Part shown: positions 3,622 to 22,356 of the stretch, in pieces
Position numbering within the stretch: position 1 is the first letter of the stretch
Layout: the number at the start of each line of letters is the position of its first letter
Source: a virus
Taxonomy: Duplodnaviria > Heunggongvirae > Uroviricota > Caudoviricetes
IMG/VR virus record: IMGVR_UViG_2595698888_000001
Span: 64,001 to 128,000 of that record
Reading direction: 5' to 3' (one strand)
DNA length: 64,000 nt
Made by a program: the position numbers and the translations under genes
Notes under the pieces: generated by a model
What the model saw: only the letters and a program-made list of their open reading frames with translations
Databases searched by the model: none
What the model was told of the DNA's origin: nothing

Positions 3622-3663
3622 ATACGTAATTAATCGACAAATTAGCCTCCATTTCCGGCCTTA

Positions 3664-3737: not shown

Positions 3738-3762
3738 AAGGCCACGCAATGTGGCCTTTTTT
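3738..3762 (+). terminator. intrinsic terminator
   Basis: AAGGCCAC-GCAAT-GTGGCCTT followed by a T run. Confidence 0.85.
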
Positions 3763-3775
3763 ATTGGAAAAATAA

Positions 3776-4677: not shown

Positions 4678-4683
4678 TAACTA

Positions 4684-4833
4684 ATGGAAGTACTATTCGA
4701 ATTACTGTTTGCACTAATTGAATGTCTTGTTGAAATGATGTGCATGGGTGCTAAAGGTCGCTGGATACTTTTTATTCTGTTGACTATTATTGCAGTTATT
4801 GGTTTTGGTGTATGGACTCTTTCTTATAAGTAA
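4684..4833 (+). CDS. small membrane protein (49 aa, not in the ORF track)
   Basis: Read by hand as MEVLFELLFALIECLVEMMCMGAKGRWILFILLTIIAVIGFGVWTLSYK*, AGGA upstream. Confidence 0.65.
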   Translation: MEVLFELLFALIECLVEMMCMGAKGRWILFILLTIIAVIGFGVWTLSYK

Positions 4834-4907
4834 GGATTGTAAATGAAAAAATTAACTAAAGGGCGTATGACTTTCTATTAAGGTACTTTAATTAATAGGA
4901 GGAACAT

Positions 4908-5450: not shown

Positions 5451-5461
5451 GCTCCCTTTTT
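5441..5461 (+). terminator. intrinsic terminator
   Basis: AGGGAGC-TAA-GCTCCCT followed by a T run. Confidence 0.8.
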
Positions 5462-5475
5462 AATTAGGTAATGTA

Positions 5476-6288
5476 ATGACAGATCATAATAATCTTGATT
5501 CAGATGAATTGCAATTAGCAAGAGAGCTATTATTTTTAATGAGCGAGATTGCTCCAACAATTACTGCATATGTTTTTAGCGATAAATGTATGTTCGGTTT
5601 TGGGAAATATTCAGAACGTGTAATTAACTGGCTTGCTACTTACAATTTCATTGTTTGTAATAACAGAACTCCGATAAATGATTCTGGTAATGCGTTCATT
5701 AACTATTACGTATTAACCGATATGGGAAAAGCATTTAACAAGATTGGAGTACTAAGTACAATCGATGTTGAAGAAAATAAAGAAAAGTTTTTCGAGCTTG
5801 GTAATGAAATTTATTCCATTTTGGAAGCTTATTACGCTGAAGAAACGAATATGTTAGCTCGTCTACTTACAGTAGAAGAACAAGACTCGTATTCTAATTA
5901 CTATCGGTTGATGACATACGAATCTATTAAGAACCGAGGCAAAAACAGTACTGATACCATTCGTGAAAACGGCTTAAAAAATATGTTTTCTCTATCAGTA
6001 CTACTAGGTGAGAAAGATGATAATGATCGCCGTACATATGATTATGTACTTAAAAAATGCGTAGAAGAACTTGGCGAACTGTCATTAGAAATTCAAATTG
6101 ATTCGGGTCTTTCATATAAAGAACCTGGTGCAGATGGCATTGAGGGTGAAGCAGTTGATCTTGCAATTTGTGCGATGGATATGTTTGCATTACAATATCC
6201 AGGATTATCACCTGAGCAAATCGAAGCTGAATTCTATAAAAAGATGAATGAAAAATTAGAGAAGTGGAAACGCACTATAGGGATGTAA
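5476..6288 (+). CDS. protein with C-terminal MazG-like NTP pyrophosphohydrolase domain
   Basis: KCVEELGELS...EGEAVDLAICAMD matches the MazG EExxE...ExxD pattern. Confidence 0.65.
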   Translation: MTDHNNLDSDELQLARELLFLMSEIAPTITAYVFSDKCMFGFGKYSERVINWLATYNFIVCNNRTPINDSGNAFINYYVLTDMGKAFNKIGVLSTIDVEENKEKFFELGNEIYSILEAYYAEETNMLARLLTVEEQDSYSNYYRLMTYESIKNRGKNSTDTIRENGLKNMFSLSVLLGEKDDNDRRTYDYVLKKCVEELGELSLEIQIDSGLSYKEPGADGIEGEAVDLAICAMDMFALQYPGLSPEQIEAEFYKKMNEKLEKWKRTIGM

Positions 6289-6305
6289 AATCGGGGTTTT
6301 TGGGG

Positions 6306-6311
6306 TAAATA
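6306..6311 (+). promoter_or_regulatory. T4-like late promoter core TAAATA
   Basis: TAAATA just upstream of the tailspike gene. The same hexamer recurs before other structural or late genes (16860, 35734, 51592, 53464, 56231, 57003). Confidence 0.65.
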
Positions 6312-6350
6312 TTTGTCTAGAACAAAATTTACTCTTAAAAAGGAATCCTT

Positions 6351-8372
6351 ATGAGTGATCTTTCAGTAGTCGCGGAACGCTATTTAATTTCCGAAAGTTC
6401 AGTATGTCATGCATCTGATGGTCAATTACTTGATGATATTAAAATAGTAGTTCACTCTGATGATAGTGAGTGGTATGTTCCAACTTTACCAAAGGGAACA
6501 TTATTAAAATCATTATCACTATCATCTAATGTTGATGGAACGTGTACTTGTAAATTGGTACATACGAATGGAAGTACTGATTTGGTTAGTGCTACGCACA
6601 TATCAAGTAATATCTCAGGTAATACTGCAATACGTCAACTACCAGCTAATGATTCAAGGCTAATACGGTTTTTAAGCTTTGAACAATATGGTGCTATTTC
6701 TGGTGGTACAGTTGAATGTTCTGCCGCAATAAATGCATGTTTAAATGATGCACGAAAATATAATCTCCCAATATGGAGTACTGGAAAATACTATATTAAT
6801 AATATAGTCGATTTTTCAAACGTCACTGCAAGTGGATTCACATTAGTTGGTGGGGCAAGTTCACCAAATTCATATTGTGTACTTGTAAATGGTTCTGCCA
6901 ATATTGATAATGTAAACTTTGAAAAAGTTTATCTTCAGCATACGAATGGTGATTTGAAGTTAACCAATTTTACATTTAAAAAAGTTGGAGCTACCGCAGC
7001 AGTACTTTCATTGAATTTAACAAGTGAAGGTTCCGTAACACTCCAATATGGAACATTTAGACAATGTAACTACGGTTATTTACGTCAAGGTGATCCATTG
7101 TGGGGAAGTGCATTACGATTCCAACACTTGAAAAATCTACAGTTCTTTGATATGAACGGAGATTGTATTGAATTAAATTTGGGCATTAAAGATAGAAATA
7201 CCGAAGTTTCTGATATCCTTGTTGACAACGTTAACCATACTGGTAAAAACCTTTTTTGGGGAATTGCACTAGGATTCGCAGGTAAAACTCCTTACGGTCT
7301 TGATGCTGACGATAGTTCATATATGTCAGATGTAAGTATTAAACGTGTCAAGGTGTATGGTGCTCGCCAATGTCTTCACTTCGAAAAATGTAGAAATATA
7401 TACCTAGAAGATATTGAAATGTATCCAGACAGTACTAAGAGTGTTAACTCTGGTATTGATCCTGCTGGAATTATTCTTTACGGTTCAAAAGATATATCAA
7501 TAAAGGACGTGAAAGGTAAACCTGATCAAGCTTCAATCAAAATGATTCACACGTCATGGGGCGTTACTGATGATGCATATATTTGTGCTGAACGTAATAT
7601 TCTTGTCCGAGACGTTGATGTTGATGGAAACATTGAGTTGAATATGAGCACTAATGATGTATATAACTCATATCTAAGAGTTTACAATGTTAGTTGTAAT
7701 GTATTTGCAATAACTGGACAAGCGTCAGAATTTCATGTTGAGAATGTAAGATGTTCTAATATACTTTTGGACTTCCAACCAGTAACTAATACCAGTAAAG
7801 ACCAACTCAGAAGACACAACCGTATTACTGCAACATTCAAAGATATTGTCAGTAAAGATGAAAATCAAGATTGTGTATGTAGCATTAAAAATATTGCGAT
7901 TGATGAATTAACAGTTCAGAACTGTAATTTTCCATTCTTTAAGCAAAGTACTTCTACCATTACACGTGGAACACCAATAACAAAACTCGACGGTATATAT
8001 CACTATGATAGTGAAGGATTCCCAAATGGATACCAGTTCAAGGTTGGTGACAGAATTATAGATAGTACTGGAAAAATGTATGTTGTCAAACAATCTGGTG
8101 CTGTTTTCAGTTCATATGAGAAGGTTCGTTCTGCTGTATGTGGTCAGAATTATCTAGTTTCATATAATATGAACTGGTTGTCAGCATATAAAACTGCTGG
8201 CACTCGTATTCGCATTCCTGGTGCTGGAGAGAATGGAACAGACTTAGTGTGTACTGTAGTAAGAAGTTCACATGTCAATAATGGGATGTATAGAATTATA
8301 TTATCCGACACAATTAAAACAGATATTCCAGATGGAACTCAAATACTTCCAGAGAATATATGTAAGTACTAA
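6351..8372 (+). CDS. WcaM-like beta-helix tailspike (probable colanic-acid depolymerase)
   Basis: GDCIELN..IKDRN...WGIALGFAG...RQCLHFE...GID.A.I..YG parallels the WcaM motif series GDAIEWN..WGIGIGLAG..RQLVHVE..GIDNA. Late promoter upstream. Confidence 0.78.
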   Translation: MSDLSVVAERYLISESSVCHASDGQLLDDIKIVVHSDDSEWYVPTLPKGTLLKSLSLSSNVDGTCTCKLVHTNGSTDLVSATHISSNISGNTAIRQLPANDSRLIRFLSFEQYGAISGGTVECSAAINACLNDARKYNLPIWSTGKYYINNIVDFSNVTASGFTLVGGASSPNSYCVLVNGSANIDNVNFEKVYLQHTNGDLKLTNFTFKKVGATAAVLSLNLTSEGSVTLQYGTFRQCNYGYLRQGDPLWGSALRFQHLKNLQFFDMNGDCIELNLGIKDRNTEVSDILVDNVNHTGKNLFWGIALGFAGKTPYGLDADDSSYMSDVSIKRVKVYGARQCLHFEKCRNIYLEDIEMYPDSTKSVNSGIDPAGIILYGSKDISIKDVKGKPDQASIKMIHTSWGVTDDAYICAERNILVRDVDVDGNIELNMSTNDVYNSYLRVYNVSCNVFAITGQASEFHVENVRCSNILLDFQPVTNTSKDQLRRHNRITATFKDIVSKDENQDCVCSIKNIAIDELTVQNCNFPFFKQSTSTITRGTPITKLDGIYHYDSEGFPNGYQFKVGDRIIDSTGKMYVVKQSGAVFSSYEKVRSAVCGQNYLVSYNMNWLSAYKTAGTRIRIPGAGENGTDLVCTVVRSSHVNNGMYRIILSDTIKTDIPDGTQILPENICKY

Positions 8373-8378
8373 CCAAAT

Positions 8379-8406
8379 AGGGAAAGATGAATGTCTTTCC
8401 CTTTTA
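8379..8406 (+). terminator. intrinsic terminator after tailspike
   Basis: AGGGAAAGA-TGAATG-TCTTTCCCT followed by TTT. Confidence 0.8.
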
Positions 8407-8426
8407 TTTTATAATAAGGTAATACG

Positions 8427-9041
8427 ATGACAGATCATGCAAAAACAAAAGCGTTAATGGACGTTCTTGCAGAAATGAATAAACAGGATTCGAAGTGGGG
8501 AGCAGACCGCGATCAGCATCCATTTTTGTGGCAGGTTATTTTAGGTGAGGAATTCGGCGAGGTTTGTCAAGCGATTCTTCATGATGAGTTCGGCGGCTCT
8601 CACGCTGGCACAGCACGAGAAGAATTAGTACAAGTTGCTGCTGTAGCCTTGCAATTCATTGAGCAGTATGATAGACTTAGTGGAATTCAGAAAAGCGAAA
8701 CAAAAAACAAATTAGTAATTTTAGAATCTCCATTTGCAGCTACCAATGGTTATACAGTACAAGAGAATATTGATTATGCACGTAAATGTGTACGCCATTC
8801 TCTTTCATTAGGCGAAGCACCTATTGCAAGTCACTTATTGTATACGCAGGATGGAATTCTTGATGACAATATCCCCGAAGAACGTCAATGGGGTATTGAT
8901 GCTGGTCTAGCATGGAAAGAAGTTGCACACGGTTCTGTTGTTTATACTGATCGAGGAATTAGTAAAGGAATGGAATACGGTATTGCGGCTGCAATTGCTG
9001 CTGGCCTTACTGTTGAATATAGAAGTATTGAGGAAAAATAA
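8427..9041 (+). CDS. MazG-like domain fused to a nucleoside-deoxyribosyltransferase-like (DUF4406/DUF7768-type) domain
   Basis: N-terminal LGEEFGEVCQA...REELVQVAAVA. C-terminal VILESPF...GEAPIASHLLY...GISKGMEYGI. Confidence 0.65.
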   Translation: MTDHAKTKALMDVLAEMNKQDSKWGADRDQHPFLWQVILGEEFGEVCQAILHDEFGGSHAGTAREELVQVAAVALQFIEQYDRLSGIQKSETKNKLVILESPFAATNGYTVQENIDYARKCVRHSLSLGEAPIASHLLYTQDGILDDNIPEERQWGIDAGLAWKEVAHGSVVYTDRGISKGMEYGIAAAIAAGLTVEYRSIEEK

Positions 9042-9322
9042 TGAAAATTCGTCCAGTATATAATCACATAATTGCTAAAAAACATGTGTATGAAGCAAAA
9101 AGTGCAGGTGGTATTATTTTAACTGCCACTGGTGAAGATGAATCAACACATGCTGAAGTACTAGCGATTGGTCCCGCATTTAAATCCGATGTTAAAGTTG
9201 GTGACATTATCACTTATGAAGAAGGTGATAAACGTGTTCATTCTGAAAAAATTGACAACGAAGATATTCTGATTATGCCAGAAGATTGTGTTATTGGCGT
9301 CGTCGAGCAAAAAACTGAATAA
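9041..9322 (+). CDS. groES: co-chaperonin GroES
   Basis: MKIRPVYNHII..KSAGGIILT..AEVLAIGP..VKVGD. Confidence 0.9.
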   Translation: MKIRPVYNHIIAKKHVYEAKSAGGIILTATGEDESTHAEVLAIGPAFKSDVKVGDIITYEEGDKRVHSEKIDNEDILIMPEDCVIGVVEQKTE

Positions 9323-9331
9323 GGTGAAAAT

Positions 9332-10594
9332 ATGCATTCGGCATTAGTAGAATTACAAGAACGTGGATTAATCAAACAAAGTACTGATATTGAAGTACTG
9401 TCTAAACTACTTGACGAAGGTTCAGCAGTGTATTGTGGTTTTGATCCTACTGCCGATTCTCTGCATATTGGTAGTTTACTCCCACTGACTATCATGAATG
9501 TTTTTAAAAAACATGGAGTGAAAGTTATTGCGTTACTTGGCGGAGCAACTGGATCAATTGGTGATCCAAGCTTTAAATCTGAAGAACGTAAAATGTTATC
9601 ATGGGATGATATTGACCGCAATGTTGCTGGTATTCGTGCAGTTATTAAGAGTATTTTGGGCGATGTAGAAATTGTAAACAATTATTCTTGGACTAAAGAT
9701 ATTAATATGCTTGAGTTTTTGCGTGATTACGGTAAATGCTTCACTGTGAATAATATGATGAACAAAGAATCTGTACGTTCACGTATTGAACGCGATGAAC
9801 AAGGTATTTCTTTCACTGAATTTTCGTATCAAATTCTTCAAGCAATGGACTTTGAATATTTGTACGAAATGAATAACTGCAAAATCCAAATTGGTGGTTC
9901 TGACCAATGGGGTAATATGATTGCTGGAATTGATTTGATTCATAAAATCCACGGCAATGATGCAGACTGCGGTGTTATCACTATACCACTAGTTACTAAA
10001 TCTGATGGTACTAAATTTGGTAAATCAGAATCTGGTACTATCTGGTTAACTGAACAACGCACTACGCCATATCACTTCTTCCAGTTCTGGCGTAATCTAG
10101 ATGATGCAGAGATTCCAAAATTATATCAGTACTTTAAACCTTTTAGTTTCAGTGTTGATGATATTGTAAGTGAAATGACTAATGGTGACCCAAATATTGT
10201 AAAACTTCAGTTTGCAATTGCTATGACTGAGATGGTTCATGGGGAACATAAAGCTTCTTTGGCACGTGATATTACTGATTTCTTACATGGTAAAAAAGAA
10301 ATTACCGAAGAAGCAGTAGAAATGATGATTAAAAGTGGATTTGATGTTGATGAAAGTACTGACAACTTAGAATTAGTTTCTTTGGTGGTTAGTACTGGAT
10401 TAGCTGATTCCCGTAAAATGGCACGTGAGTTTATTAATAATGGTGCTGTAAAAATTAATGGTCGTAAAGTAAATGAATTTTACGATACTGCAAATTGTGA
10501 ATTTACAGAAGATGTAGATTTTGTAGATGCAAAACATTTTGTATTGCAGCGTGGTAAAAACACATATGTCGTTGTAAAAAATACAAGGCGTTAA
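9332..10594 (+). CDS. tyrS: tyrosyl-tRNA synthetase
   Basis: YCGFDPTADSLHIGS (HIGH), QIGGSDQWGN, KFGKS (KMSKS) and a C-terminal S4-like domain. Confidence 0.97.
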   Translation: MHSALVELQERGLIKQSTDIEVLSKLLDEGSAVYCGFDPTADSLHIGSLLPLTIMNVFKKHGVKVIALLGGATGSIGDPSFKSEERKMLSWDDIDRNVAGIRAVIKSILGDVEIVNNYSWTKDINMLEFLRDYGKCFTVNNMMNKESVRSRIERDEQGISFTEFSYQILQAMDFEYLYEMNNCKIQIGGSDQWGNMIAGIDLIHKIHGNDADCGVITIPLVTKSDGTKFGKSESGTIWLTEQRTTPYHFFQFWRNLDDAEIPKLYQYFKPFSFSVDDIVSEMTNGDPNIVKLQFAIAMTEMVHGEHKASLARDITDFLHGKKEITEEAVEMMIKSGFDVDESTDNLELVSLVVSTGLADSRKMAREFINNGAVKINGRKVNEFYDTANCEFTEDVDFVDAKHFVLQRGKNTYVVVKNTRR

Positions 10595-10595
10595 T

Positions 10596-10802
10596 ATGAA
10601 GATTGTATACGCAATATTAATTGCATTACTTTTAACGTCATGTCGTACCGAAGACAAAGTTCAAAACATTGTACTGTACGGTAATAAAACACTTTACCCT
10701 GAAGTACTAAATGCTACTTTAAAATTAGATAACAAAGAGTATTCTTGTACTAGTTTTGACGGAAAGCATGATCAACTTGTTTTCGTGTGTCGTAAGAAAT
10801 AA
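10596..10802 (+). CDS. small putative lipoprotein
   Basis: Signal peptide with lipobox-like LLTSC. Confidence 0.65.
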   Translation: MKIVYAILIALLLTSCRTEDKVQNIVLYGNKTLYPEVLNATLKLDNKEYSCTSFDGKHDQLVFVCRKK

Positions 10803-10808
10803 GACTTG

Positions 10809-10931
10809 AGAAATACAAAGCCGTGCATTCTGGCAAAAACCAGATATAAGACCGTTTACGCTTCAATGCTAGTACTTGAAAACTCCCTACTCGTTAGAAC
10901 TACCAATTTCCAGGGCGTTGTATTTCTTTTT
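10809..10931 (+). ncRNA. candidate ~120-nt structured RNA or cis-element
   Basis: Ends pair: AGAAATACAA-A-GCC (10809-10822) with GGC-G-TTGTATTTCT (10914-10927). Internal hairpin TCTGG/CCAGA. Followed by a T run in an otherwise ORF-free gap. Confidence 0.45.
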
Positions 10932-10949
10932 AATTTAGAGAGGAATAAT

Positions 10950-11591
10950 ATGAATATCGTAGAAAAGTACTACTGGATCATAGAGCACCCAAAATATGTT
11001 CCATTCGGTGATACCGCAGTCATCGAAATCACACCACACATGGTTTGTCCAGAAACAAATTGCGTTGAAAAATTAGAATTGTTGAATACTAAACTACAAT
11101 TTTGGGTTGAGTTGTTGATTCCATTCTTCGATGAACAACACAAACAACACTGTCATTCACATGATTGGGAATTGGATTGTGGTGGTGACACATGGGAAGA
11201 AGCCGTTGAAAATTTGTACAAATTGGTTCTCGAAAAGTACGGTGATTATACCCAAGAAGATTTGGATAAGCAACGTGAAGAAGCAATGAAAGATTTCGAT
11301 ATGGATAAATGGGTAAAAACCGTAGATTCAATGATGGCTGATAATAAAGAATCGAGTGAAGTCGTAATGTTACCAGATTATGAAATCGAACATATGAAGT
11401 TTGAAATCGGGCATTTAGAAGTTCTACAAGAAGTGCTTCAAAATAAATTGCGTGAACCAACAATAACAATGCAAGAATACGATGATGTTCAATTGGAACT
11501 AATCTGCGTAGATCACGACTTATATGTAATGCGTGAAAGCGTTAAATGTGGTTATGATGTAGAAAAATATGGTCTAAGGAATGAAGATTGA
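10950..11591 (+). CDS. hypothetical acidic protein (start revised to ATG 10950)
   Basis: GAGAGGA RBS precedes ATG 10950, in frame with the 10806 ORF. Confidence 0.75.
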   Translation: MNIVEKYYWIIEHPKYVPFGDTAVIEITPHMVCPETNCVEKLELLNTKLQFWVELLIPFFDEQHKQHCHSHDWELDCGGDTWEEAVENLYKLVLEKYGDYTQEDLDKQREEAMKDFDMDKWVKTVDSMMADNKESSEVVMLPDYEIEHMKFEIGHLEVLQEVLQNKLREPTITMQEYDDVQLELICVDHDLYVMRESVKCGYDVEKYGLRNED

Positions 11592-11946
11592 AAAACTGAT
11601 TCGCATCTTGCAGAAGATGCCTCAGCATAAACAAATCAAGTGCACTCGAAAGAAATATAAAATTATTGCTTGTGCACTTGATAGAAAGGGTAAAGTACTG
11701 GCGATGAGGACGAACGATTATGATTGTTCTCATCCATTACAAAAACATTTTGCAGTACTTGTTGGAAAGCCTGAAGCAATTTTTCTACATGCTGAAATCG
11801 CCACGTTAATTGCCGCACGAAAAGAAGTTCATAAATTACTTATTGCCAGGGTTGATAAGAATGGAAATCCACTTTCAGCAAAACCTTGTCCAATATGTGA
11901 AAAAGCAATTGAAGCCTTTGGAGTAAAAGAGATTGAATACACTTAA
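11581..11946 (+). CDS. cytidine/dCMP deaminase-fold zinc protein
   Basis: HAE...KPCPIC zinc-deaminase signature. Confidence 0.8.
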   Translation: MKIEKLIRILQKMPQHKQIKCTRKKYKIIACALDRKGKVLAMRTNDYDCSHPLQKHFAVLVGKPEAIFLHAEIATLIAARKEVHKLLIARVDKNGNPLSAKPCPICEKAIEAFGVKEIEYT

Positions 11947-12193
11947 TGCATCATTGGTCGCGATAATCGATATTTTCAAAAAAGGAAATGAATCTGACAT
12001 GTACATTAGTACTGTCACATTCCTTTTCAAAACTATATCAGAAGAAAAAGAATCTGGTACATATGATATGGAAAAGTATTTCTCAAATGCTATTTCCATT
12101 CATAATCGTCTGCGAGAAAAATATAATGCAGATTTTAACGGGCCACTATTATCGTGGTACAGAAGGTTTATAGGATTGCATGGAGGTTTATAA
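11933..12193 (+). CDS. hypothetical protein (start uncertain)
   Basis: Fills the gap between the deaminase and the kinase. TTG start. Confidence 0.5.
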   Translation: MNTLNASLVAIIDIFKKGNESDMYISTVTFLFKTISEEKESGTYDMEKYFSNAISIHNRLREKYNADFNGPLLSWYRRFIGLHGGL

Positions 12194-12744
12194 TGGAAAC
12201 AATTGTAATTAATTTAGTTGGGGGTCCCTGTTCAGGAAAATCTACAACAGCGGCAGGGTTATTTGCTAAAATGAAACTACACACTAAACAACGTGTAGAA
12301 ATCGTAACTGAAGTAATCAAAGATTACGTGTACGATGAAAACAAAATGGCAATGCAAGATCAAGTACTGATCACTGCAAACCAGAACCACCGCCTATTCC
12401 GTTTAAATGGAAAGGTGGATTTTGTCGTATCTGATGCATCTCTACTAAATGGTATTGTCTATAATGAATTCTACGATGATGTAGAAAATATTAGTTCTAC
12501 TATTGCGTGGCAACTTTATCAGCAATACAACAATATTGTATTTCTACTTCCACGTAAGCCTGAATATGATCAGTACGGTAGAACTCAATCATTAGAAGAA
12601 GCTAAAGAGCTGGATCGTTTGTTTGTGGAAAATCTTACACATTTCAATATTCCATTTATTGATATGCGTGAATATACTCATGAAGAAATGCCTGACCGTA
12701 TTCTTGAAGTACTTTCTGCAAAATATGGTTTTGATACACATTAA
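12193..12744 (+). CDS. P-loop NadR/AAA_28-like nucleotide kinase or ATPase
   Basis: VINLVGGPCSGKST Walker A, VVSDASLL, GRTQ. GGAGG RBS before ATG 12193. Confidence 0.75.
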   Translation: METIVINLVGGPCSGKSTTAAGLFAKMKLHTKQRVEIVTEVIKDYVYDENKMAMQDQVLITANQNHRLFRLNGKVDFVVSDASLLNGIVYNEFYDDVENISSTIAWQLYQQYNNIVFLLPRKPEYDQYGRTQSLEEAKELDRLFVENLTHFNIPFIDMREYTHEEMPDRILEVLSAKYGFDTH

Positions 12745-12753
12745 GGATTTATA

Positions 12754-13044
12754 GTGAAACAATTAGCACAATTAGTAGAAAATCAAGAAAATGCAGGTCA
12801 AATTTATTATGCTTGTAATGTGCGTAATGTAATTCAGCCAGTAAGGGTACGACTAGTATCCGTTACTGAAATTTATAAAAATGTTGACCATAAAGATTTT
12901 CCATTAATGGCAGTAATAGTTTATGAAAGTGATGAAATTCCAGTACCTTCAAAATTTAATACGATTCCAATAAGTTGTACTGTATTGTTTGATACATACG
13001 AAGAAGCATCATTCGAGTTCTCTAAGTACTGGAAAATTCATTGA
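12754..13044 (+). CDS. hypothetical protein
   Basis: 96-aa ORF with AAGGA RBS and GTG start. Confidence 0.65.
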   Translation: MKQLAQLVENQENAGQIYYACNVRNVIQPVRVRLVSVTEIYKNVDHKDFPLMAVIVYESDEIPVPSKFNTIPISCTVLFDTYEEASFEFSKYWKIH

Positions 13045-13071
13045 ACAAACGTTAATCAAAGTTCTGAAATC

Positions 13072-13085
13072 TTGATCTAGATCAA
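13072..13085. promoter_or_regulatory. perfect FNR box upstream of nrdD
   Basis: TTGAT-CTAG-ATCAA, centred about 42 bp upstream of a plausible start defined by -10 TATTTT at 13109-13114. Confidence 0.75.
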
Positions 13086-13088
13086 TAG

Positions 13089-13114
13089 AAATACCCCGTT
13101 ATATGGGGTATTTT
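13089..13114 (+). terminator. terminator hairpin overlapping the putative FNR-dependent -10
   Basis: AAATACCCC-GTTATAT-GGGGTATTT followed by T. Confidence 0.7.
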
Positions 13115-13153
13115 AATTTTTAAGTGCGTAAATAAATTCACCTAAAATTAGAC

Positions 13154-14968
13154 ATGGAGAGTCGTATGAATAACGATAGATTGTACAGTGATATTAACGA
13201 GTTTTTGAACCAAAGCAATAAAGATTTACTGAATGAAAATGCAAACAAGGATGCAAAGATTGTTAATACGCATCGCGATTTACTTGCTGGTATTCTGTCT
13301 AAACATTTTGCAGAAGATATTATTTCAGAAGATTTAATGCAATGGCATAAAAATGGTTATGGTCACATACACGATCTCGATTATTTTATAAGCCCACTAA
13401 CGAACTGTTGCTTAGTAAATTACAGAGATATGTTAGAAAATGGATTTAAGATTGGGAATGCACAAGTTGGCACTCCTAAAAGTATTGGTGTTGCAAGCAC
13501 AGTACTTACACAAATTGTATTAGCTGTTTCCGCGAGTCAATATGGCGGTCAAACACTAGCACACATTGATTTTGGACTCGAACCATACGTTCAGAAGTCC
13601 TACGATAAGCTCTTAGAGCAGCAGAAGGAATTCAACCTACCAGATGAGTTCGTTGAAAAAACCCTTCAGAAAGAGGTTTATGACGCTATGCAAGCGTTGT
13701 TATACCAGGTGAATACAATCACATCAAGTAATGGTCAAACACCTTTTGTCACTATTACTATGGGATTAAACACATCAAAATTTGGTAAAATGATTACTGA
13801 TTCGTACTTAAAAGTTCACGAAAAAGGATTGGGTGTTGATGGCACAACTCCGGTATTCCCTAAAGTAGTATTCTTCCTAGAAGATGGAGTGAATATGAAG
13901 GAAGAAGATCCCAACTACGATCTTAAAGTACAGGCAATGAAAACTTCAGCTAAACGAATCTATCCTGATTTTGTTTCAGTACCATTGAATAAGAAAGTAA
14001 CTGGCAGTACTAGTATTGCGGTTTCACCAATGGGATGCAGATCATTTCTAGGAAAATGGGATGATGGCAGTACTGAAAAATATGATGGTCGTTTTAACCT
14101 TGGAGTAGTGTCAATTAATTTACCATTACTTGCACTCGAATCAAATTCTGATGGTGAATTCTTTGGCAAGATTGACTATCACATGAATATGGCATATCGT
14201 GCACAAATGAATCGTGTCGAACGATTGAAGAATACAAAAGCACGGCAAAACCCTACTATGTTTATGGAAGGTGCAATTTCCCGTCTTGATGCAGATGACA
14301 CAATTGAAAAACTCTTCTATGACGGATACGCAAGTATTAGTATTGGTTATGTAGGCTTAGCAGAATGTTCTGAAATTATGAAAGGACAGATTGTAAAAGA
14401 TTATTGCAAATCTATTCTTCATTATATGAAATATAAATGCGAGCAATTCAAAGAAGAAAGTAATATCGCTTTTAGTTTATATGGAACTCCAGCCGAAAGC
14501 TTATGCTATAAATTTGCAAGAGCAATTGAAGAAAAGCATCCTAATATTCTAAAACGTAACTTTATTACAAACTCATTCCACCAGCCAGTGTGGATTAACT
14601 CTGGACAATTTAGCAAGTTTGATTACGAAGAAGGATTTGCATATCTAAGTAATGGTGGAAATATTAGCTATGTTGAAACCCCAAATCTTTCAAATAACAT
14701 GACTGCACTAGAAACATTAATCAATTATGCATATGAAAGAATTCCGTACTTCGGTATAAATCAGCCAGTAGATAAATGCTATAAGTGCGAGTTTGAAGGT
14801 GAATTTGAAGTTGATAAAATTGGATTCCACTGTCCACAGTGTGATAATAGAGAAGAAGGAACTATGTCAGTGATTCGCAGGGTTTCTGGATATTTGAGTG
14901 CACCTAATAGTAGACCTTTCAACACTGGCAAACAGCAAGAAGTTATACAACGAATTAAACACCAATAA
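13154..14968 (+). CDS. nrdD: anaerobic ribonucleoside-triphosphate reductase (class III), no ATP cone
   Basis: HIHDLDY, TNCCL, PMGCRSFL, NLGVVSINLP, YGTPAESLC, C-terminal CxxC..CxxC and glycyl-radical loop RRVSGYL. Confidence 0.97.
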   Translation: MESRMNNDRLYSDINEFLNQSNKDLLNENANKDAKIVNTHRDLLAGILSKHFAEDIISEDLMQWHKNGYGHIHDLDYFISPLTNCCLVNYRDMLENGFKIGNAQVGTPKSIGVASTVLTQIVLAVSASQYGGQTLAHIDFGLEPYVQKSYDKLLEQQKEFNLPDEFVEKTLQKEVYDAMQALLYQVNTITSSNGQTPFVTITMGLNTSKFGKMITDSYLKVHEKGLGVDGTTPVFPKVVFFLEDGVNMKEEDPNYDLKVQAMKTSAKRIYPDFVSVPLNKKVTGSTSIAVSPMGCRSFLGKWDDGSTEKYDGRFNLGVVSINLPLLALESNSDGEFFGKIDYHMNMAYRAQMNRVERLKNTKARQNPTMFMEGAISRLDADDTIEKLFYDGYASISIGYVGLAECSEIMKGQIVKDYCKSILHYMKYKCEQFKEESNIAFSLYGTPAESLCYKFARAIEEKHPNILKRNFITNSFHQPVWINSGQFSKFDYEEGFAYLSNGGNISYVETPNLSNNMTALETLINYAYERIPYFGINQPVDKCYKCEFEGEFEVDKIGFHCPQCDNREEGTMSVIRRVSGYLSAPNSRPFNTGKQQEVIQRIKHQ

Positions 14969-14977
14969 GGAATTATC

Positions 14978-15421
14978 ATGATACATGATAACATAGAAGT
15001 AAACTGCAATCATTTACTGAACAGAACTTTACTAGGATTTTTGCCAGTATTTGATGTAGAGTACAATTCAATATCTTACTATTCAGTTGAAAATATTCAC
15101 CCGAATCGTGAATATGAAAGGGTTGTTCCATGTTATCATTTAGAAGTATCTGATGATTGGGTGTGTGAGCAAGAACATTTCTTTATGCAGGAATGTTTAC
15201 CACCAAAATCTCGCGAGAATTTAGTACTTCTCCACGAGATTTATCGTGACGAATATATAGATAATTTCACTAATAAGAAATATATCGTTATATTCGTTGG
15301 GTGTGATGATGGTGATAAAATTATGCGTTTCAAAGATCATAACGATGCTGTGAAGTTCTTAAACGGAATTTCATACTATGATGAAATCTTTGATAAAAAT
15401 GAAATGTTAATGCTATATTAA
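14978..15421 (+). CDS. hypothetical protein
   Basis: 147-aa ORF with AAGGA RBS. Confidence 0.7.
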   Translation: MIHDNIEVNCNHLLNRTLLGFLPVFDVEYNSISYYSVENIHPNREYERVVPCYHLEVSDDWVCEQEHFFMQECLPPKSRENLVLLHEIYRDEYIDNFTNKKYIVIFVGCDDGDKIMRFKDHNDAVKFLNGISYYDEIFDKNEMLMLY

Positions 15422-15439
15422 CATATTCAAGGATGAATA

Positions 15440-16183
15440 ATGGCAAAATTGACAAAGCAAGAAATTGCAAATCACAATAAAATTCTGGATTTAATAAACT
15501 CAGATAAAGTACTGACATTCGATGAAAAATGGTTTATTCTTGAGAACTATCACGAAGGTGCAACCAATATTAACTCCGCTGCTGGAGCATTTTTTACCCC
15601 AATATACTATTCAAGAGATTTTTGTTTAGAAGTTTGGGGTGATACTGTAATTGATATGTGTGCCGGAATTGGATCTTTATCATTTATGGTAGCAAATAAG
15701 TATGATCCAAATGATATTCCTAGTCAGATTGTATGTGTTGAATTAAATCCAGAATATGCAGAAATTGGTAAACGAATAGTACCGGAAGCTGACTGGATTA
15801 TTGCAGATGTTCTATCGTATGAATCGCCAATTATGTTTGATCAAAGCATAAGTAACCCACCATTCGGTCGTATTAAAACATCTGATGTTAAAGATTTATC
15901 ATATAAAGGTGCAGAGTTCGAATTTAAAGTTATCTCAAAAGCATCCACATTGTCAAAATACGGTACTTTCATATTACCTCAAGGAAGTTCAGGATTTAAA
16001 TACTCTAATAACAGATACTATGAAAGATGTGAGACTGATAAGTACAAAAAGTTTAAAGAACAAACTCAAATAGAATTACATCCTGGTATTGGAATTGATT
16101 CATCCGTTTTTAAAGATGACTGGAAGGGTGTGAACATTATTACTGAAGTATGTGTTGCGGATTTCTCAGGAGAATTTCTATGA
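15440..16183 (+). CDS. orphan DNA adenine methyltransferase (motif I before motif IV)
   Basis: IDMCAGIGSL (motif I) then ISNPPF (motif IV). No cognate endonuclease nearby. Confidence 0.8.
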   Translation: MAKLTKQEIANHNKILDLINSDKVLTFDEKWFILENYHEGATNINSAAGAFFTPIYYSRDFCLEVWGDTVIDMCAGIGSLSFMVANKYDPNDIPSQIVCVELNPEYAEIGKRIVPEADWIIADVLSYESPIMFDQSISNPPFGRIKTSDVKDLSYKGAEFEFKVISKASTLSKYGTFILPQGSSGFKYSNNRYYERCETDKYKKFKEQTQIELHPGIGIDSSVFKDDWKGVNIITEVCVADFSGEFL

Positions 16184-16653
16184 ATTTCCAAACAATAGTA
16201 AAAGATGATTTAATCAATGGTACTGGTGTTAGAGTAAGTTTGTATGTTTCTGGATGTAGTCATGGATGCAAAGGATGTTTTAATGAATCTGCATGGGATT
16301 ATCGTTCAGGTGAACCATTTGGCGAAGAACAAATTAACATTATCAGACGCGAATTATCCAAACCATATGTAGAAGGTCTAACACTACTTGGTGGAGATGC
16401 ATTGATGCCTAAAAATATCAGTACTGTTATAGAACTTTGCAAAATAGTAAAATCGGAATATCCGAACAAAAATATTTGGTGTTGGACAGGTTATACTTTA
16501 GAAGAAGTAAAAGAAAACCACGCTTCTGAAATTTTAAAATACGTTGACGTTCTTGTGGATGGGGAGTTCGTTGAAGAACTAAAAAATCTAAAACTCCCAT
16601 TCCGTGGCTCAGAAAACCAACGAGTACTAATAAAAGGAAAAGATTATGACTGA
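16180..16653 (+). CDS. nrdG: anaerobic RNR activating radical-SAM enzyme
   Basis: NGTGVRVSLYVSGCSHGCKGCFN (CxxxCxxC), GLTLLGGD, FRGSENQR. Confidence 0.96.
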   Translation: MNFQTIVKDDLINGTGVRVSLYVSGCSHGCKGCFNESAWDYRSGEPFGEEQINIIRRELSKPYVEGLTLLGGDALMPKNISTVIELCKIVKSEYPNKNIWCWTGYTLEEVKENHASEILKYVDVLVDGEFVEELKNLKLPFRGSENQRVLIKGKDYD

Positions 16654-16822
16654 TAAGATTATCTATCAAAAAAAATTTGATGGGAATATGATTGAAGAAC
16701 TAGACCCGTATGATATTTTGAACAGTGATGATATTGAAACTGATGCTTTTGGTGATGCTCATGGAACATTTACTGTTACTGTGACTTACACACCACCAGA
16801 TTATGATCCGAATGAAGAATAA
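16646..16822 (+). CDS. small acidic hypothetical protein (58 aa, not in the ORF track)
   Basis: Read by hand as MTDKIIYQKKFDGNMIEELDPYD...PPDYDPNEE*, overlapping the nrdG stop. Confidence 0.6.
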   Translation: MTDKIIYQKKFDGNMIEELDPYDILNSDDIETDAFGDAHGTFTVTVTYTPPDYDPNEE

Positions 16823-16847
16823 GCACCCGCATGGGTGCTTTTTTTGT
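16821..16847 (+). terminator. intrinsic terminator
   Basis: AAGCACCC-GCAT-GGGTGCTT followed by a T run. Confidence 0.88.
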
Positions 16848-16899
16848 TTATAACCCCAATAAATACAACAATGATTATCTAATTTTATAGGGATATATT

Positions 16900-19608
16900 A
16901 TGGCTAAACAAGTAAAAGGTACTGTTGATGTAGCTAGATATGCCACGTCTCAAGGAAGAAACATTGCACGTTCAGTGAGTGGTTTAGATTTTGATGACAA
17001 TGGCAATCTTTCTATTGATGCATACACCACTGAAGAATTTAACAAAATTATCAGTGTAATACCAATATCGCACTATGGATCATTTAACTACCTACCGGCT
17101 GGCGTATACGGTTCATATGAAGGTGCTAGTGATGTTCCCGCATACCGTTATCGCAAGATATTTGTAGAAGATAATGGTTCTTTAATTATACTACGTTCTG
17201 GTACGAATGGTGCTAAACGTGGCTTATATTATTCTTTCATGGATAATATTCTTACAACATCAAATTTAAATAGTTCTATAAACACAAACCGAGAATATAA
17301 ACCAGGTTATTTTGGAAGCACATATACAGCAAAGATGGCATTTGCAAGTGATGCTCGTGTTTGTGCTGGTCTAGCGTTTAATTCATCAAATGACCAATTT
17401 ATTTTTATATCATGGATGAATAACACACTAAACGATACACAGCATGTCGGGTCTATTGTACCAGCGGCAACATTATTACCGAACAATGGTTCAGTAAGAT
17501 TTGTAATGACTGGTAATACAGAAATATACTTCTTCGTAGAAGTGAGTGATGGGAATAATCTTATTTTAGAACTACGTTCTGTTCCTATTTCACAAATTCG
17601 TACATCAGCGACCACATTAACTGTAACAGAATATGCCAACTGGACAACAAATGGATTTTATGGTAAATCGATTTCTAACAGAAATATAGTACTTAACGAA
17701 ACTAAAGTTAGTAAAAATGCATCTGAGCAACCTTACATGTTAATTCCACAAGATGCAATTGGATATGAACCATATATGACAGGAGTTGATATATACGCTG
17801 CACAGAATTCTGCTGGACAAATTCGTCTTCGCGTTGTTGGTGATGCATGGTGCACCACAAGTTTCAGAAGTATACGCCCTAAACATAATTACAGCTTTTT
17901 GTTGAACCCTAGTACTAAAGTTGCAACCTTAGAAGCAGGAAATAATGCACCATTAACTATCACTGATCCCGGTTCTGGCACGTCATTAAACGTTGCTGGT
18001 CAAACTTATACAACTGATCCAGTACTTACTTTTAACGGTCAACGTTCAAACCAAATAATGGGTTATTTCTATTTTGACGATGGTGATATTATTGCAATTG
18101 CTACTGAAAACATCGGAAGTGCAGCTACTAAAATTATACGTGCACACTATCCTAACGCAACATCAGTGTTTAACACACTACAGGTTCGAAATTATATAAG
18201 TACTAATTTTGCGTATGGTGCAATGAATACTGCATTTGGTGCACCAGTTGGTTCTGAAGTTCTTAGCTTTGAATGGCTACCAAATAACCGTTATAAAGTT
18301 GGGTCTACGATTGCAGCAAGTACCTACCGACAATCGGTAAACCAATATAAACCAAATCCAACATATACATTTGGTTCTGTTTCATTAGGTACGATCAATG
18401 GATTTGAACCAACAGCAAACAGATATATTACAAATTCTACACTAGATTATAAACTTTTCATTAATACAATTAATGGAACTACTGTTACTACTAATGGTGG
18501 AATTTTCGTCGAAAATGAAAAATTATCATCAGCATTATCGTATAATGAAGATATGGTTGGTTCAGGTAATATGAGCATTAATAATACCTTGTTGACTAAT
18601 TTAAAAAATCAACAATTAGCAAATGCAACACTATCAGTAGATACAACTAATACATCGTGTATAACATTATTCGTTCCACAACAAACTAACTGTCCAGCGT
18701 TTGCACTAATAAGTGCTGTTACACCATCTAGACAGAATTATCTTAAAATTATCGAAGTTAATGTGAATACAAGAACTGGTGTTATAAGTACATTAACTTT
18801 TAAAAGATTAGTATATGAAGACTCTGGAAACTTTGGTTCAATTTCATATCCAGGCACATATGGAATTTCTTCTGCTGCGGTAGGGATAACAATATATGAT
18901 GCTGGAACTTTTTATGTTATTGGTGGGGTTGACCCATATATGTACAGAACTGTTGGCGATACAAATAGTATCACATGGAGAGCTAAAGTAACTAAAAGTA
19001 CTGGTCAAATGGATGATTTTGTTGTCGCGAGTACATATCAGGCACATACACCAAATGATGGTCAATTACCAACTGCTGTTCCCGGCGTAGGTTTTGGTTA
19101 TATTGATTTTTTCCGAAATAGAGAAGATGACCGTGTTCGTATTATTTTTCAGCCTGTAGGTACAACATTAGCTCAATATAATTCATGGACTCCTAATGGG
19201 AACCCTATTTTATTAGCTTCACAAGATGTTGCACAAGGTTTTATTATATACTTCACTGAAAACACATCAGTACTACTATCTGGAAAGTCATTTACGATGC
19301 CAATTCAAAATATTGATTTGCGAACAGTAAAAGCTAATCCTGCAAATAGTACATTCCACATTTACGTTACAATGGAAGAAGGGTTGGCTAAGTATATGGC
19401 AACAGAAACTGTAATTGCTGAAACTGGAACGACTGCATATAATACATTCTGGATAGGTACGGTTACTACTAATGCTAACCAAATTTCGTCAATAAACGTT
19501 CTTAAACGTAGTCGTTTAGATGTATTCGGTGCATCATTAGAAGCAGCAGGTTCTTCATTCCCTGTGAGTTATGGATTACCGTCAGGATCTGGAATTATAA
19601 ACTGGTAA
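16900..19608 (+). CDS. large virion or tail-fibre-like protein, paralog 1 of 3
   Basis: 902 aa, S/T/N/G-rich, late promoter TAAATA at 16860. Shares LRxGTNG and QDVxQGF..PANxTF..GSxxP motifs with the next two ORFs. Confidence 0.65.
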   Translation: MAKQVKGTVDVARYATSQGRNIARSVSGLDFDDNGNLSIDAYTTEEFNKIISVIPISHYGSFNYLPAGVYGSYEGASDVPAYRYRKIFVEDNGSLIILRSGTNGAKRGLYYSFMDNILTTSNLNSSINTNREYKPGYFGSTYTAKMAFASDARVCAGLAFNSSNDQFIFISWMNNTLNDTQHVGSIVPAATLLPNNGSVRFVMTGNTEIYFFVEVSDGNNLILELRSVPISQIRTSATTLTVTEYANWTTNGFYGKSISNRNIVLNETKVSKNASEQPYMLIPQDAIGYEPYMTGVDIYAAQNSAGQIRLRVVGDAWCTTSFRSIRPKHNYSFLLNPSTKVATLEAGNNAPLTITDPGSGTSLNVAGQTYTTDPVLTFNGQRSNQIMGYFYFDDGDIIAIATENIGSAATKIIRAHYPNATSVFNTLQVRNYISTNFAYGAMNTAFGAPVGSEVLSFEWLPNNRYKVGSTIAASTYRQSVNQYKPNPTYTFGSVSLGTINGFEPTANRYITNSTLDYKLFINTINGTTVTTNGGIFVENEKLSSALSYNEDMVGSGNMSINNTLLTNLKNQQLANATLSVDTTNTSCITLFVPQQTNCPAFALISAVTPSRQNYLKIIEVNVNTRTGVISTLTFKRLVYEDSGNFGSISYPGTYGISSAAVGITIYDAGTFYVIGGVDPYMYRTVGDTNSITWRAKVTKSTGQMDDFVVASTYQAHTPNDGQLPTAVPGVGFGYIDFFRNREDDRVRIIFQPVGTTLAQYNSWTPNGNPILLASQDVAQGFIIYFTENTSVLLSGKSFTMPIQNIDLRTVKANPANSTFHIYVTMEEGLAKYMATETVIAETGTTAYNTFWIGTVTTNANQISSINVLKRSRLDVFGASLEAAGSSFPVSYGLPSGSGIINW

Positions 19609-19617
19609 GGAAACCAA

Positions 19618-22356
19618 ATGGCTTATACAATTAAAGGCGATTTAAACGCCACACACATTAAAGTACAAGGTAAAACAGTTGGTGGTGCAATAAGCACCAC
19701 TGACAACGATACCGTATATACTGCAAATGAATCAGGTCATGTTGCGTTGCCAATTCCAACATCATCTGAAATTGATTATATTTTGAACCAGTTCCCACTA
19801 TCACAATACGGTTCAATTAATAATAACGCAGTTGGGGTTGCTGGAACATTCGATGGTGGTAGTACACCTGCATATTATTCAGCAATGCCAGTACTATTAG
19901 AAGAAGATGGGTCATTAGTATATCTAAGACCTGGAACAAATGGCAGTACTATAAACTATTACTATACTTATATTAATAATCCAGTAGTTTCTATGCAGCC
20001 ATATACCACCATAAATCATTATTATAGTGGTTCGTGGAAAAATATTTTATTCACTGCATCTGACACTAAGACTGCACTTCTATATGAAGAAGTTGGTAAT
20101 AATGCGATTCATGTAGTACTAACCAATGGAACGCTAAGGAAATCTGCACACAAAGAAGCAGTTATTGTGAGAACACTTATTCCACATTACATGGTATATG
20201 CATTAGTAATTGGAACATATTACTACATTGTAACCATTGATTCATCAACCTTTATTTTGAATAACCCTACTACACTAAACATTAGTATTAACGACCCACT
20301 TCAATTTGGATTATACCGAATTCCAGTTGCGGAAATTAATGCAGGTTCAGTAGTAACGGTTGAACGAGTTAGTGGTATTTCAGGTAAAACTATGTACGGT
20401 GATGATATTACTTCACAGAATTTTATCAGAATTGCAGATAAATGGGCGAGTGCAGATAACACTTCGGATAAATCTTTTATAAAATATCCATCGGTGATAA
20501 CGAATGTAGTACCAGTAACGTACTCAATTTATGGTAGCGTTCGTGCAATATATGACGGAACTAATTTGCGTATAGGTTTCAGTGAGAACTGTTTTATTTC
20601 AAATAACGTTCTACGTTCAGATACACGGTATGATTTTACTGTAACATTCAATATGAATACTGGTGTTTATACATCCAACTTAACACCAACGCCTGTAATT
20701 AGTACTGGAACAGCCACAAGTCTAATAACTTGGTCAAATCCATATTATGCGAATTCATCCAATTTATGGGGCAGTAATGATAATGAGTATTCTGATGGAA
20801 TGGCAGGAACAATATATATTACAAAAAATGGTATTCAGTACTTTATTCGTGAAAAATATGTACTCAGTGATGTATATCAAGTTTATCGTTCTAAGATCGA
20901 AAACTTTACATCCGTTGCTGATGCATATTCGTATCGTGGACGTACTGTAACATTACAAGAACGATTTGTTGTGAATCAGGATTTCGCATCTCGTGTAGGT
21001 GACCAACTTCTTTCATGTACACCAATTAGTTCAAGCCGAGTTATCTTTAGTGGTACAGGTACATATAATGGCGTATATTATGGCAAGTATGATAAAGGTG
21101 TTGCTGATATTGGAACTACCAGAACTTATACATACAATTCATATACACGTGGAACAATAACTGGATATGCACCACAATCATTCAGAGTTCCGTTAACAGT
21201 GCAAAGTCAAGTATATTCTGGAGTTTCATTATGTGACACATCTGGAAATGTGCAATTTTATGGAACTGCCTTTACTGAAGGTAAAAACCTAACAGTAGGA
21301 TATAAGCTAGATGCTAACACATTAACATTTGATAAAACATTTAGCATACCAAGCTCAGTACTAGTTGGATTGAAGAATTCAATTTTAACAAGTTTAGGTT
21401 TAAGTCCACAGGATTCTAAAATTGGTTTATACTACTGTCCAGACTCAAGTTATTCTAAAAGCGTTGCGACTATAGTAACACACAATGGTGGAAATAATGG
21501 CGGAAACAAGATTATTGCTACAGTTGATACAACTGTCAATACATCACAAATTCTTACTGCTACTGTTAACACGGTAATATATAATACATTTGATGCCGCA
21601 ATTCAAAGTGTTTCTCCATTCGAAATTGATGAAATGAACAGACATGCTGGGTTGTCATGTGTAAAATATAGTGATTTTACATATATTGCATTTTCTAATT
21701 TAGTTGGTTTTACGGTTCCTGGTGACACGAGAGAAGAATCTTATTGTGGTATTGTATCAGGAAGTACTATATCTTCTCTTATTGCTTCAAGATCGTATCA
21801 TGCATCAATAGATCCTGTTGCACGGGAGTACGGGTATATTCCTAATTTTGGATTCGGCTATTTTACATTTTATAATTCGGATAATGGTACTAAGCTTATT
21901 TTCAAACAATGTGGTAATACATTAGCACAGTTTAATGCGAATATGGCGGCTGGTACTGGAACAGATACTGTAATTTTGGCACAAGATGTTCCTCAAGGAT
22001 TTTACTTGTACTTCACTGAAGTAACTCCATTATTCATGGCTGGGCAGTACTTCGATGTTCCAATTTCAGTGATTAAACTAGATGATGTGGTTACCAATCC
22101 AAGTAACAAAACGTTCTACATTTACATTCAGTTAGTATTAGGTTCACCACAATATGTGGCAAGTTTATCTGAAATTCCAGAAAGCAATACCACTATGTTC
22201 TTGGGAACTATTACAACTGATGGTACTAAGGTTGCAACATTAAATATTAAGAAGGTTTCACGTTTCGACGTATACAGACCAAGCTTAACTCAGATTGGTT
22301 CGGCATTCCCTGTCAGTTCAGGAAATCCGGCACAGTCTGGTTCAATCGGATGGTAA
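19618..22356 (+). CDS. large virion or tail-fibre-like protein, paralog 2 of 3
   Basis: 912 aa, same conserved N- and C-terminal blocks, ends in W. Confidence 0.65.
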   Translation: MAYTIKGDLNATHIKVQGKTVGGAISTTDNDTVYTANESGHVALPIPTSSEIDYILNQFPLSQYGSINNNAVGVAGTFDGGSTPAYYSAMPVLLEEDGSLVYLRPGTNGSTINYYYTYINNPVVSMQPYTTINHYYSGSWKNILFTASDTKTALLYEEVGNNAIHVVLTNGTLRKSAHKEAVIVRTLIPHYMVYALVIGTYYYIVTIDSSTFILNNPTTLNISINDPLQFGLYRIPVAEINAGSVVTVERVSGISGKTMYGDDITSQNFIRIADKWASADNTSDKSFIKYPSVITNVVPVTYSIYGSVRAIYDGTNLRIGFSENCFISNNVLRSDTRYDFTVTFNMNTGVYTSNLTPTPVISTGTATSLITWSNPYYANSSNLWGSNDNEYSDGMAGTIYITKNGIQYFIREKYVLSDVYQVYRSKIENFTSVADAYSYRGRTVTLQERFVVNQDFASRVGDQLLSCTPISSSRVIFSGTGTYNGVYYGKYDKGVADIGTTRTYTYNSYTRGTITGYAPQSFRVPLTVQSQVYSGVSLCDTSGNVQFYGTAFTEGKNLTVGYKLDANTLTFDKTFSIPSSVLVGLKNSILTSLGLSPQDSKIGLYYCPDSSYSKSVATIVTHNGGNNGGNKIIATVDTTVNTSQILTATVNTVIYNTFDAAIQSVSPFEIDEMNRHAGLSCVKYSDFTYIAFSNLVGFTVPGDTREESYCGIVSGSTISSLIASRSYHASIDPVAREYGYIPNFGFGYFTFYNSDNGTKLIFKQCGNTLAQFNANMAAGTGTDTVILAQDVPQGFYLYFTEVTPLFMAGQYFDVPISVIKLDDVVTNPSNKTFYIYIQLVLGSPQYVASLSEIPESNTTMFLGTITTDGTKVATLNIKKVSRFDVYRPSLTQIGSAFPVSSGNPAQSGSIGW

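Follow-up and report, generated by a model that had tools for sequence, protein, structure and literature searches.

It is likely that the anaerobic ribonucleotide reductase operon nrdD-nrdG of this virus is served by a promoter that depends on the host regulator FNR and then by a phage late-type promoter. An earlier note on this DNA had suggested that the phage ties its anaerobic dNTP supply to the host oxygen sensor, and that suggestion gains support from the conservation of an FNR-type box in related phages and from its class II spacing to a candidate -10 hexamer.

The region lies in a stretch of 64,000 nucleotides (the window), bases 64,001-128,000 of the 358,663-bp virus record IMGVR_UViG_2595698888_000001, whose closest public relatives are the Rak2-like jumbo phages, foremost Pectobacterium phage CBB. 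The recorded hosts of these relatives are Enterobacterales, save for that of XbC2 (Xanthomonas), and enterobacterial hosts possess FNR. We compared nrdD upstream regions from annotated phage records and IMG/VR contigs, aligned on the box. The 19 distinct Rak2-like sequences are those of the window, CBB, XbC2, Kaldavass, Yen9-03, pEa12/BF, 7t3, Kae01, Hallingskeid, EJP2, PBECO4, 121Q, KP13-7 and six metagenomic UViGs. The set spans Mimasvirus, Eneladusvirus, Asteriusvirus, Alcyoneusvirus, the 7t3/Kae01 group and Hallingskeid as well as the UViGs (five named genera plus unclassified records). Column conservation was computed on 13 representatives of the 19. The features of the window are collected in Table 1.

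Table 1. Features of the nrdD-nrdG unit and its upstream region, in window coordinates
Feature	Position	Strand	Remarks
Conserved upstream element, AACAAACGTTAAYCAAAGT-like	13044-13062	+	10-28 nt before the box
FNR-consensus box TTGATCTAGATCAA	13072-13085	.	perfect 14-bp palindrome; 10/10 specified positions of TTGAT-N4-ATCAA
Terminator-like hairpin, 12 bp, loop UAU	13088-13114	+	stem GAAAUACCCCGU/AUGGGGUAUUUU; from terminator scan
Candidate sigma70 -10 TATTTT (P1)	13109-13114	+	23 nt past the box
TAAATA late-type phage promoter core (P2)	13129-13134	+	exactly 43 nt past the box
Shine-Dalgarno GGAGAG	13156-13161	+	GGAG kept in relatives
nrdD, class III (anaerobic) ribonucleotide reductase, 600 aa	13166-14968	+	Pfam NRDD E 1.6e-160, Gly_radical E 7.6e-21
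ORF of 147 aa (orf147)	14978-15421	+	no family match
ORF of 247 aa (orf247)	15440-16183	+	weak methyltransferase-like matches, all under curated cut-offs
nrdG, radical-SAM activase of NrdD	16150-16653	+	Pfam Fer4_12 E 2e-51; Radical_SAM E 7.4e-06 (under curated cut-off)
Intrinsic terminator closing the nrdD-nrdG unit	about 16821-16850	+	8-bp stem with 5 GC pairs, then TTTTTGTTTA

An FNR-consensus box and its conservation upstream of nrdD

The exact place of the box directly before nrdD and its full match to the FNR consensus, both given in the earlier note, were verified. The box starts 27 nt past the stop codon of a 96-aa ORF (12754-13044), is centred at 13078.5 and includes two GATC sequences. 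The 14-mer is identical to the idealised symmetric site of synthetic FNR promoters. The number of such boxes was compared with chance expectation. The window contains two perfect boxes against 0.49 expected, a count reached by 9 of 100 shuffles, and the whole genome contains four against three for a reversed control pattern, two of the four being intergenic. Box number alone is thus at chance level and not significant. At a rate of four per 358,663 bp, about 0.0013 boxes are expected in the 121-bp gap before nrdD; that the box found there is not a chance occurrence follows from its conservation across relatives. No other box in the genome has class II geometry: the remaining perfect boxes are coding or, at window position 3664, lack a -10 hexamer at 22-23 nt, as do the single-mismatch intergenic boxes.

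The box at 3664-3677 (TTGATTATAATCAA) is the genome's only other intergenic perfect FNR-type box and lies inside a small non-coding unit at 3612-3765. An extended -10 (TGGTATAAT, 3613-3621) is followed there by about 140 nt without an ORF, and the unit closes with a strong terminator, GGCCACGCAATGTGGCC followed by a T tract, which is listed as Torf124 in CBB. No Rfam match was obtained for the unit, whose make-up suggests a small RNA or a leader more than an FNR promoter.

The box before nrdD, for which lack of conservation had been named in the earlier note as a refuting condition, was found at this place in 19 of the 19 distinct Rak2-like sequences, and the alignment of these is ungapped from the box through 57 nt beyond it. 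In the 13 representatives, the majority base accounts on average for a fraction of 0.98 at the ten half-site columns and of 0.85 at those of N4, compared with 0.58 for the 45 nt upstream, 0.64 for the spacer between box and -10, and 0.56 for the stretch past the -10. TTGA, which marks FNR-type sites as GTGA marks CRP-type sites, is invariant in all 19, and so is TCAA. Within the half-sites a single position varies, with G in place of A (GTCAA in 121Q, PBECO4, EJP2 and one UViG); nearly all other variation in the box falls in N4. 121Q, PBECO4, EJP2 and KP13-7 have lost GATC but retain TTGA and TCAA; Dam sites are therefore not the conserved feature.

A comparable arrangement was found upstream of nrdD in Phapecoctavirus, with TTGACTAAGATCAA-N22-TAAAAT in PD06 (locus L085:595-700) and TTGATTTTCCTCAA-N22-TAGAAT in AV125 (locus L110:370-445). 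The NrdD of these two phages is about 63% identical. The recurrence of motif and spacing in a separate group is better explained by a factor common to enterobacterial hosts than by a phage-specific protein. Two further observations concern these loci. PD06 has a terminator-like hairpin (AGCCAGC-TTAAT-GCTGGCT plus a T tract) between the -10 and the nrdD start codon that could act as an attenuator, and in AV125 the T tract of the upstream terminator extends into the box. The site before nrdD was not found in T-even phages and Vequintavirinae. T4-like nrdD loci have no FNR-like box (at most one mismatch) at the Rak2-like position, and in T2, ime and EspYZU08 nrdD adjoins the preceding gene without a promoter gap.

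Phage XbC2, recorded on Xanthomonas vesicatoria, bears the identical box and module and is near-identical in this region to Erwinia phage Kaldavass. This could mean that Enterobacterales are among the natural hosts of XbC2; failing that, the site would be without function in Xanthomonas or be recognised there by a different member of the Crp/FNR family.

Ahead of the box, the upstream element of Table 1 recurs in CBB, XbC2, Kaldavass and two UViGs, and Yen9 and BF preserve it in part. In CBB it lies in non-coding DNA, and the clades with an upstream terminator (see below) lack it. Readings of this element as a second FNR site, in the manner of the host layout, or as an ArcA-like site were set aside, the matches being poor by eye. 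Several lineages (L005, L006, L016, L095) also carry AGTACT, or a one-off variant of it, about 6-18 nt upstream of the box; the window has AGTTCT.

Candidate promoters and terminators in front of the operon

The P1 hexamer predicts a transcription start at about 13120-13121, which would place the box centre at -41.5 to -42.5. The earlier note had read a start some 42 bp from the box centre out of the same TATTTT. Its position and spacing stand; it had missed that TATTTT doubles as the 3' arm of the hairpin at 13088-13114. The TATTTT of the window matches four of the six consensus positions, with A2 and T6 present. Among the 19 sequences, the hexamer at the P1 position is TATAAT (6/6) in ten, TATTAT in two (CBB and BF) and TATTTT in five (the window and four others), and several relatives have TGn immediately upstream of it, forming an extended -10. 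The distance from the box is 22 nt in Hallingskeid, EJP2, PBECO4, 121Q and KP13-7 and otherwise 23 nt. Yen9-03/04 (TTGAAT) and the UViG L036 (TTTTTT) have perfect half-sites and TAAATA, yet no credible -10 at 22-23 nt. Since they keep the box nonetheless, class II action at P1 cannot be the sole reason for its retention.

P1 has no -35 hexamer, and a simple sigma70 consensus scan made no call there. The silence of the scan is explained by the missing -35, as expected where an activator fills that place in a class II promoter. The TTGAT-N4-ATCAA consensus and the class II centre near -41.5, on which the earlier note had relied, agree with Myers et al. 2013, who give the same FNR consensus and find 19 of 23 directly FNR-activated E. 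coli promoters with sites centred at -41.5 +/- 4 (PMC3688515).

The hairpin between box and predicted start is followed by a T-rich tail (AATTTTTAAG) reaching to about 13124. Its centroid fold has -15 kcal/mol and a z of -2.6, and 3 of 200 shuffles fold as well. At the sequence level it has the GC-containing stem and the T tract of an intrinsic terminator, and no known RNA family was matched at the hairpin or in positions 1-20000 at E <= 1. We refer to the window, CBB, XbC2, Kaldavass, BF, Yen9 and three UViGs as the hairpin clade (nine sequences). The ACCCC/GGGGT core of the stem is invariant in 9/9 of these, and in Yen9 the next stem pair is changed on both sides, from T-A to A-T, which amounts to one compensatory change. 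The other clades have no spacer hairpin; theirs is a strong terminator ahead of the box (GCACCC-N4-GGGTGC-T6 or similar).

The hairpin probably stops transcripts arriving from upstream: lying ahead of the predicted start, it would halt incoming transcripts and would not enter the nrdD mRNA. The hairpin clade thus appears to have packed a terminator into the promoter spacer, with its 3' arm serving also as the -10. In every lineage a terminator lies ahead of the predicted P1 start, so that nrdD would be insulated from upstream transcription and dependent on its own promoters.

The late TAAATA core that had been noticed after the box is present at 13129; its motif family is the one most enriched in upstream regions of the genome, and the core matches the late-type motif of CBB. 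ATAAATA is the most enriched 7-mer within 100 nt upstream of ORFs in this genome (43 occurrences versus 4.8 expected), TAAATAC, TAAATAA and CTAAATA are likewise enriched there, and TAAATA cores peak 35-45 nt before start codons genome-wide. In CBB, an ATAAATA/CTAAATA motif before structural genes has been likened to the T4 late promoter and a gp55-like sigma has been noted, with no gp33 or gp45 homologues detected (PMC5259590). The same paper lists neither a promoter nor a terminator before nrdD (PMC5259590).

Upstream of nrdD, both the TAAATA sequence and its 43-nt distance from the box are invariant (19/19), and this distance is held more tightly than that between box and -10. The distance from TAAATA to the start codon is 31-46 nt among the 19. 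The window core, 37 nt before its start codon, is comparable to T4-type late promoters (TATAAATA, gp55) and the ATAAATA motif of CBB and GAP32. It differs from them in several respects: the first two T4 late-type bases are CG in place of TA, the core is preceded by G and not by A or C, and it fronts a nucleotide-metabolism gene and is locked to an FNR box. A second, phage-type promoter for nrdD at TAAATA is very probable.

The transcription unit has the order nrdD-orf147-orf247-nrdG-orf58, the last being a 58-aa ORF, and orf247 overlaps the start of nrdG by 34 nt. The nrdD start codon is most likely the ATG at 13166, after GGAGAG. The ATG at 13154 called by the ORF finder would include the ribosome-binding site in the coding sequence and is the weaker candidate, since nrdD is annotated in CBB from the counterpart of the second ATG. 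The nrdD promoter is separated from an AAA_28 kinase-like gene by the 96-aa ORF, which has no family match; no ORF is present at this place in CBB, where the end of the AAA_28 gene directly adjoins the conserved non-coding element. If the FNR reading is true, orf147 and orf247 would be oxygen-regulated too.

The binding factor and comparison with known systems

HTH_Crp_2 and cNMP_binding, the domains of Crp/FNR-family proteins, found no match at E <= 1 across the 358,663-bp phage genome, and control genomes were positive. A phage-encoded Crp/FNR regulator was set aside on this basis, which points to a regulator supplied by the host rather than by the phage. The NrdR consensus consists of paired 16-bp boxes (acaCwAtATaTwGtgt). 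No such box was found in the whole window at three or fewer mismatches, a threshold that the E. coli nrdD box passes, and NrdR control of the phage nrdD promoter was rejected for want of a match in the window. The phage copy would therefore escape dNTP-feedback repression. If the absence of NrdR boxes holds, the phage may keep oxygen control and drop dNTP-feedback repression, which fits a virus needing a large dNTP supply.

The host nrdDG operon is FNR-activated and NrdR-repressed (PMC4009431, PMC2892513). Oxygen limitation induces it 4.4-, 17.8- and 24.4-fold in E. coli, Dickeya and Pectobacterium, respectively (PMC3349551), and an FNR ChIP peak has been found at E. coli nrdD (PMC3688515). 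FNR activation of the host operon, as asserted in the earlier note, is thus in agreement with the literature (PMC4009431, PMC3349551, PMC3688515). We located two FNR-like sites and the NrdR box CACTATATATAG in the E. coli nrdDG upstream region, with TTGAGCTACATCAA lying 44 nt before a TAAAAT hexamer. Boston and Atlung are said to have placed the host nrdDG FNR positions at -64.5 and -33.5 in 2003. The host nrdDG promoter of E. coli and Salmonella thus has the same gene pair under an FNR site as the phage, and the E. coli spacing of 44 nt from TTGAGCTACATCAA to TAAAAT is near that of the phage box-N43-TAAATA. The host promoter differs in having an extra, weaker FNR site and NrdR boxes, whereas the phage region has no NrdR match, and the sequences between box and -10 are unrelated. 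The phage promoter and that of E. coli nrdDG were judged not to be homologous, as the two share the FNR box and the rough distance to the -10 alone, the rest being unrelated.

The class II FNR promoters of E. coli (dmsA, narG, nirB, ydfZ and the synthetic FF(-41.5)) have the same TTGAT-N4-ATCAA overlapping the -35 region. The candidate promoter P1 is like them in its 22-23 nt to the -10, its predicted centre near -41.5 and its lack of a -35 hexamer. Unlike them, the phage site lies on the genome of a virulent jumbo phage, its spacer in the hairpin clade holds a terminator that supplies the -10, and a late-type core stands downstream of it at a constant 43 nt. T-even phages and Vequintavirinae have a homologous NrdD (about 45% identity for the T4-like loci) without the Rak2-like FNR box.

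Lytic cyanophages carry auxiliary metabolic genes under host regulation, such as PhoB-dependent pstS/phoA and genes with NtcA sites. There, likewise, a metabolic gene of a virulent phage is placed under a host environmental sensor and expressed only when useful. The phage nrdD case differs in regulator, signal (oxygen) and host group, and its site geometry, fixed to the single base, is shared by several phage genera.

Full-text searches of the literature turned up no earlier account of an FNR site in front of nrdD in a phage, and we likewise found no transcriptome for any enterobacterial member of the Rak2-like phages. Class II promoters of FNR are already well known, as is host-sensor control of auxiliary genes in lytic cyanophages; what sets the present case apart is the base-precise conservation across several phage genera and the fixed link to a late-type promoter.

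Weighing the readings and their meaning

In the reading that we favour, dimeric [4Fe-4S]-FNR, already present in an anaerobic cell at infection, would bind the box centred near -41.5 and, as a class II activator, recruit host sigma70 RNA polymerase to the -10 lying 22-23 nt downstream. The oxygen-labile reductase and its activase would thereby be made early only when they are able to work. The terminator before the start, in the spacer hairpin or upstream of the box depending on the clade, would insulate the operon and require it to have promoters of its own, and the TAAATA promoter 43 nt past the box would probably give later expression via the phage gp55-like sigma. Of this model, the sequence features with their conservation and spacing and the lack of a Crp/FNR homologue in the phage are observed, whereas FNR binding, activation, the start sites and the timing are inferred.

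A class I role of FNR at the late-type TAAATA promoter, as its main or an additional mode of action, overlaps in part with the favoured reading; we consider it unlikely, if a serious candidate. T4 late promoters have TAAATA at -11 to -6, a placement that would put the box centre at -61.5, the canonical class I position, and bring FNR into contact with the alpha C-terminal domain of polymerase bearing the gp55-like sigma. The fixed 43 nt in 19/19 sequences, whereas the position of the -10 shifts by 1 nt and TAAATA stands at varying distances from the ATG, would fit such contact. So would Yen9 and the UViG L036, which retain box and TAAATA without a P1 -10, and E. coli nrdDG, with its similar long-range layout of TTGAGCTACATCAA and TAAAAT. 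CBB does have a gp55-like sigma, though gp33/gp45 homologues are undetected (PMC5259590). Class I FNR promoters are rare, however, at 1 of 23 (PMC3688515). The 22/23-nt shift at a constant 43 nt could come from a single ancestral event, and class I action leaves unexplained why ten sequences have a consensus TATAAT at the class II distance. We also know of no case in which a host activator drives a phage-sigma holoenzyme in this way. Host FNR and the phage gp55-like sigma could also cooperate at one composite promoter, the box standing at -41.5 for the sigma70 start and at about -61.5, two helical turns on, for the TAAATA start. We hold this to be quite unlikely; if true, oxygen would gate nrdD-nrdG both early and late in infection, and Yen9 and the UViG L036, without a sigma70 -10, would rely on the class I mode alone.

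It is very improbable that the palindrome is bound by a factor other than FNR, be it a phage regulator or another host protein, or that it is a Dam-methylation or structural element whose match to FNR is coincidental. The two GATC within the box and the chance-level count of boxes genome-wide would be compatible with this, and the phage family does encode transcription regulators of its own, CBB_511 and CBB_513 (PMC5259590). The loss of GATC from four named phages with TTGA/TCAA persisting argues against it. The conserved bases are moreover of the FNR type and not the CRP type, GTGA never being seen, the same motif and spacing occur before the same gene in Phapecoctavirus, and the phage has no Crp/FNR-family protein at E <= 1. 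Scarcely credible is a chance palindrome of no regulatory role beside the terminator of the upstream gene, with nrdD transcribed from the TAAATA promoter only. Such a view could draw on TATTTT being the 3' arm of a terminator-like hairpin and on the insignificant box count in the window. Neutral DNA would not, however, hold ten specified bases in 19 sequences with unalignable flanks, and the clades with the terminator upstream of the box still have both box and consensus TATAAT. Conservation brings the no-role reading close to refutation.

If the FNR-dependent reading is true, virulent jumbo phages of E. coli, Klebsiella, Salmonella, Cronobacter, Yersinia, Serratia, Erwinia and Pectobacterium would read the host oxygen sensor, and Phapecoctavirus would likewise use it to time an oxygen-labile dNTP supply. 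It would show clearly, down to the single base, how a lytic phage brings an auxiliary metabolic gene under a global regulon of its host. Through the conserved 43-nt link one could examine in a simple manner whether polymerase with a phage sigma responds to a host activator. The finding would bear on phage replication in the anoxic gut, in plant tissue and in biofilms, and several such phages are considered for therapy.
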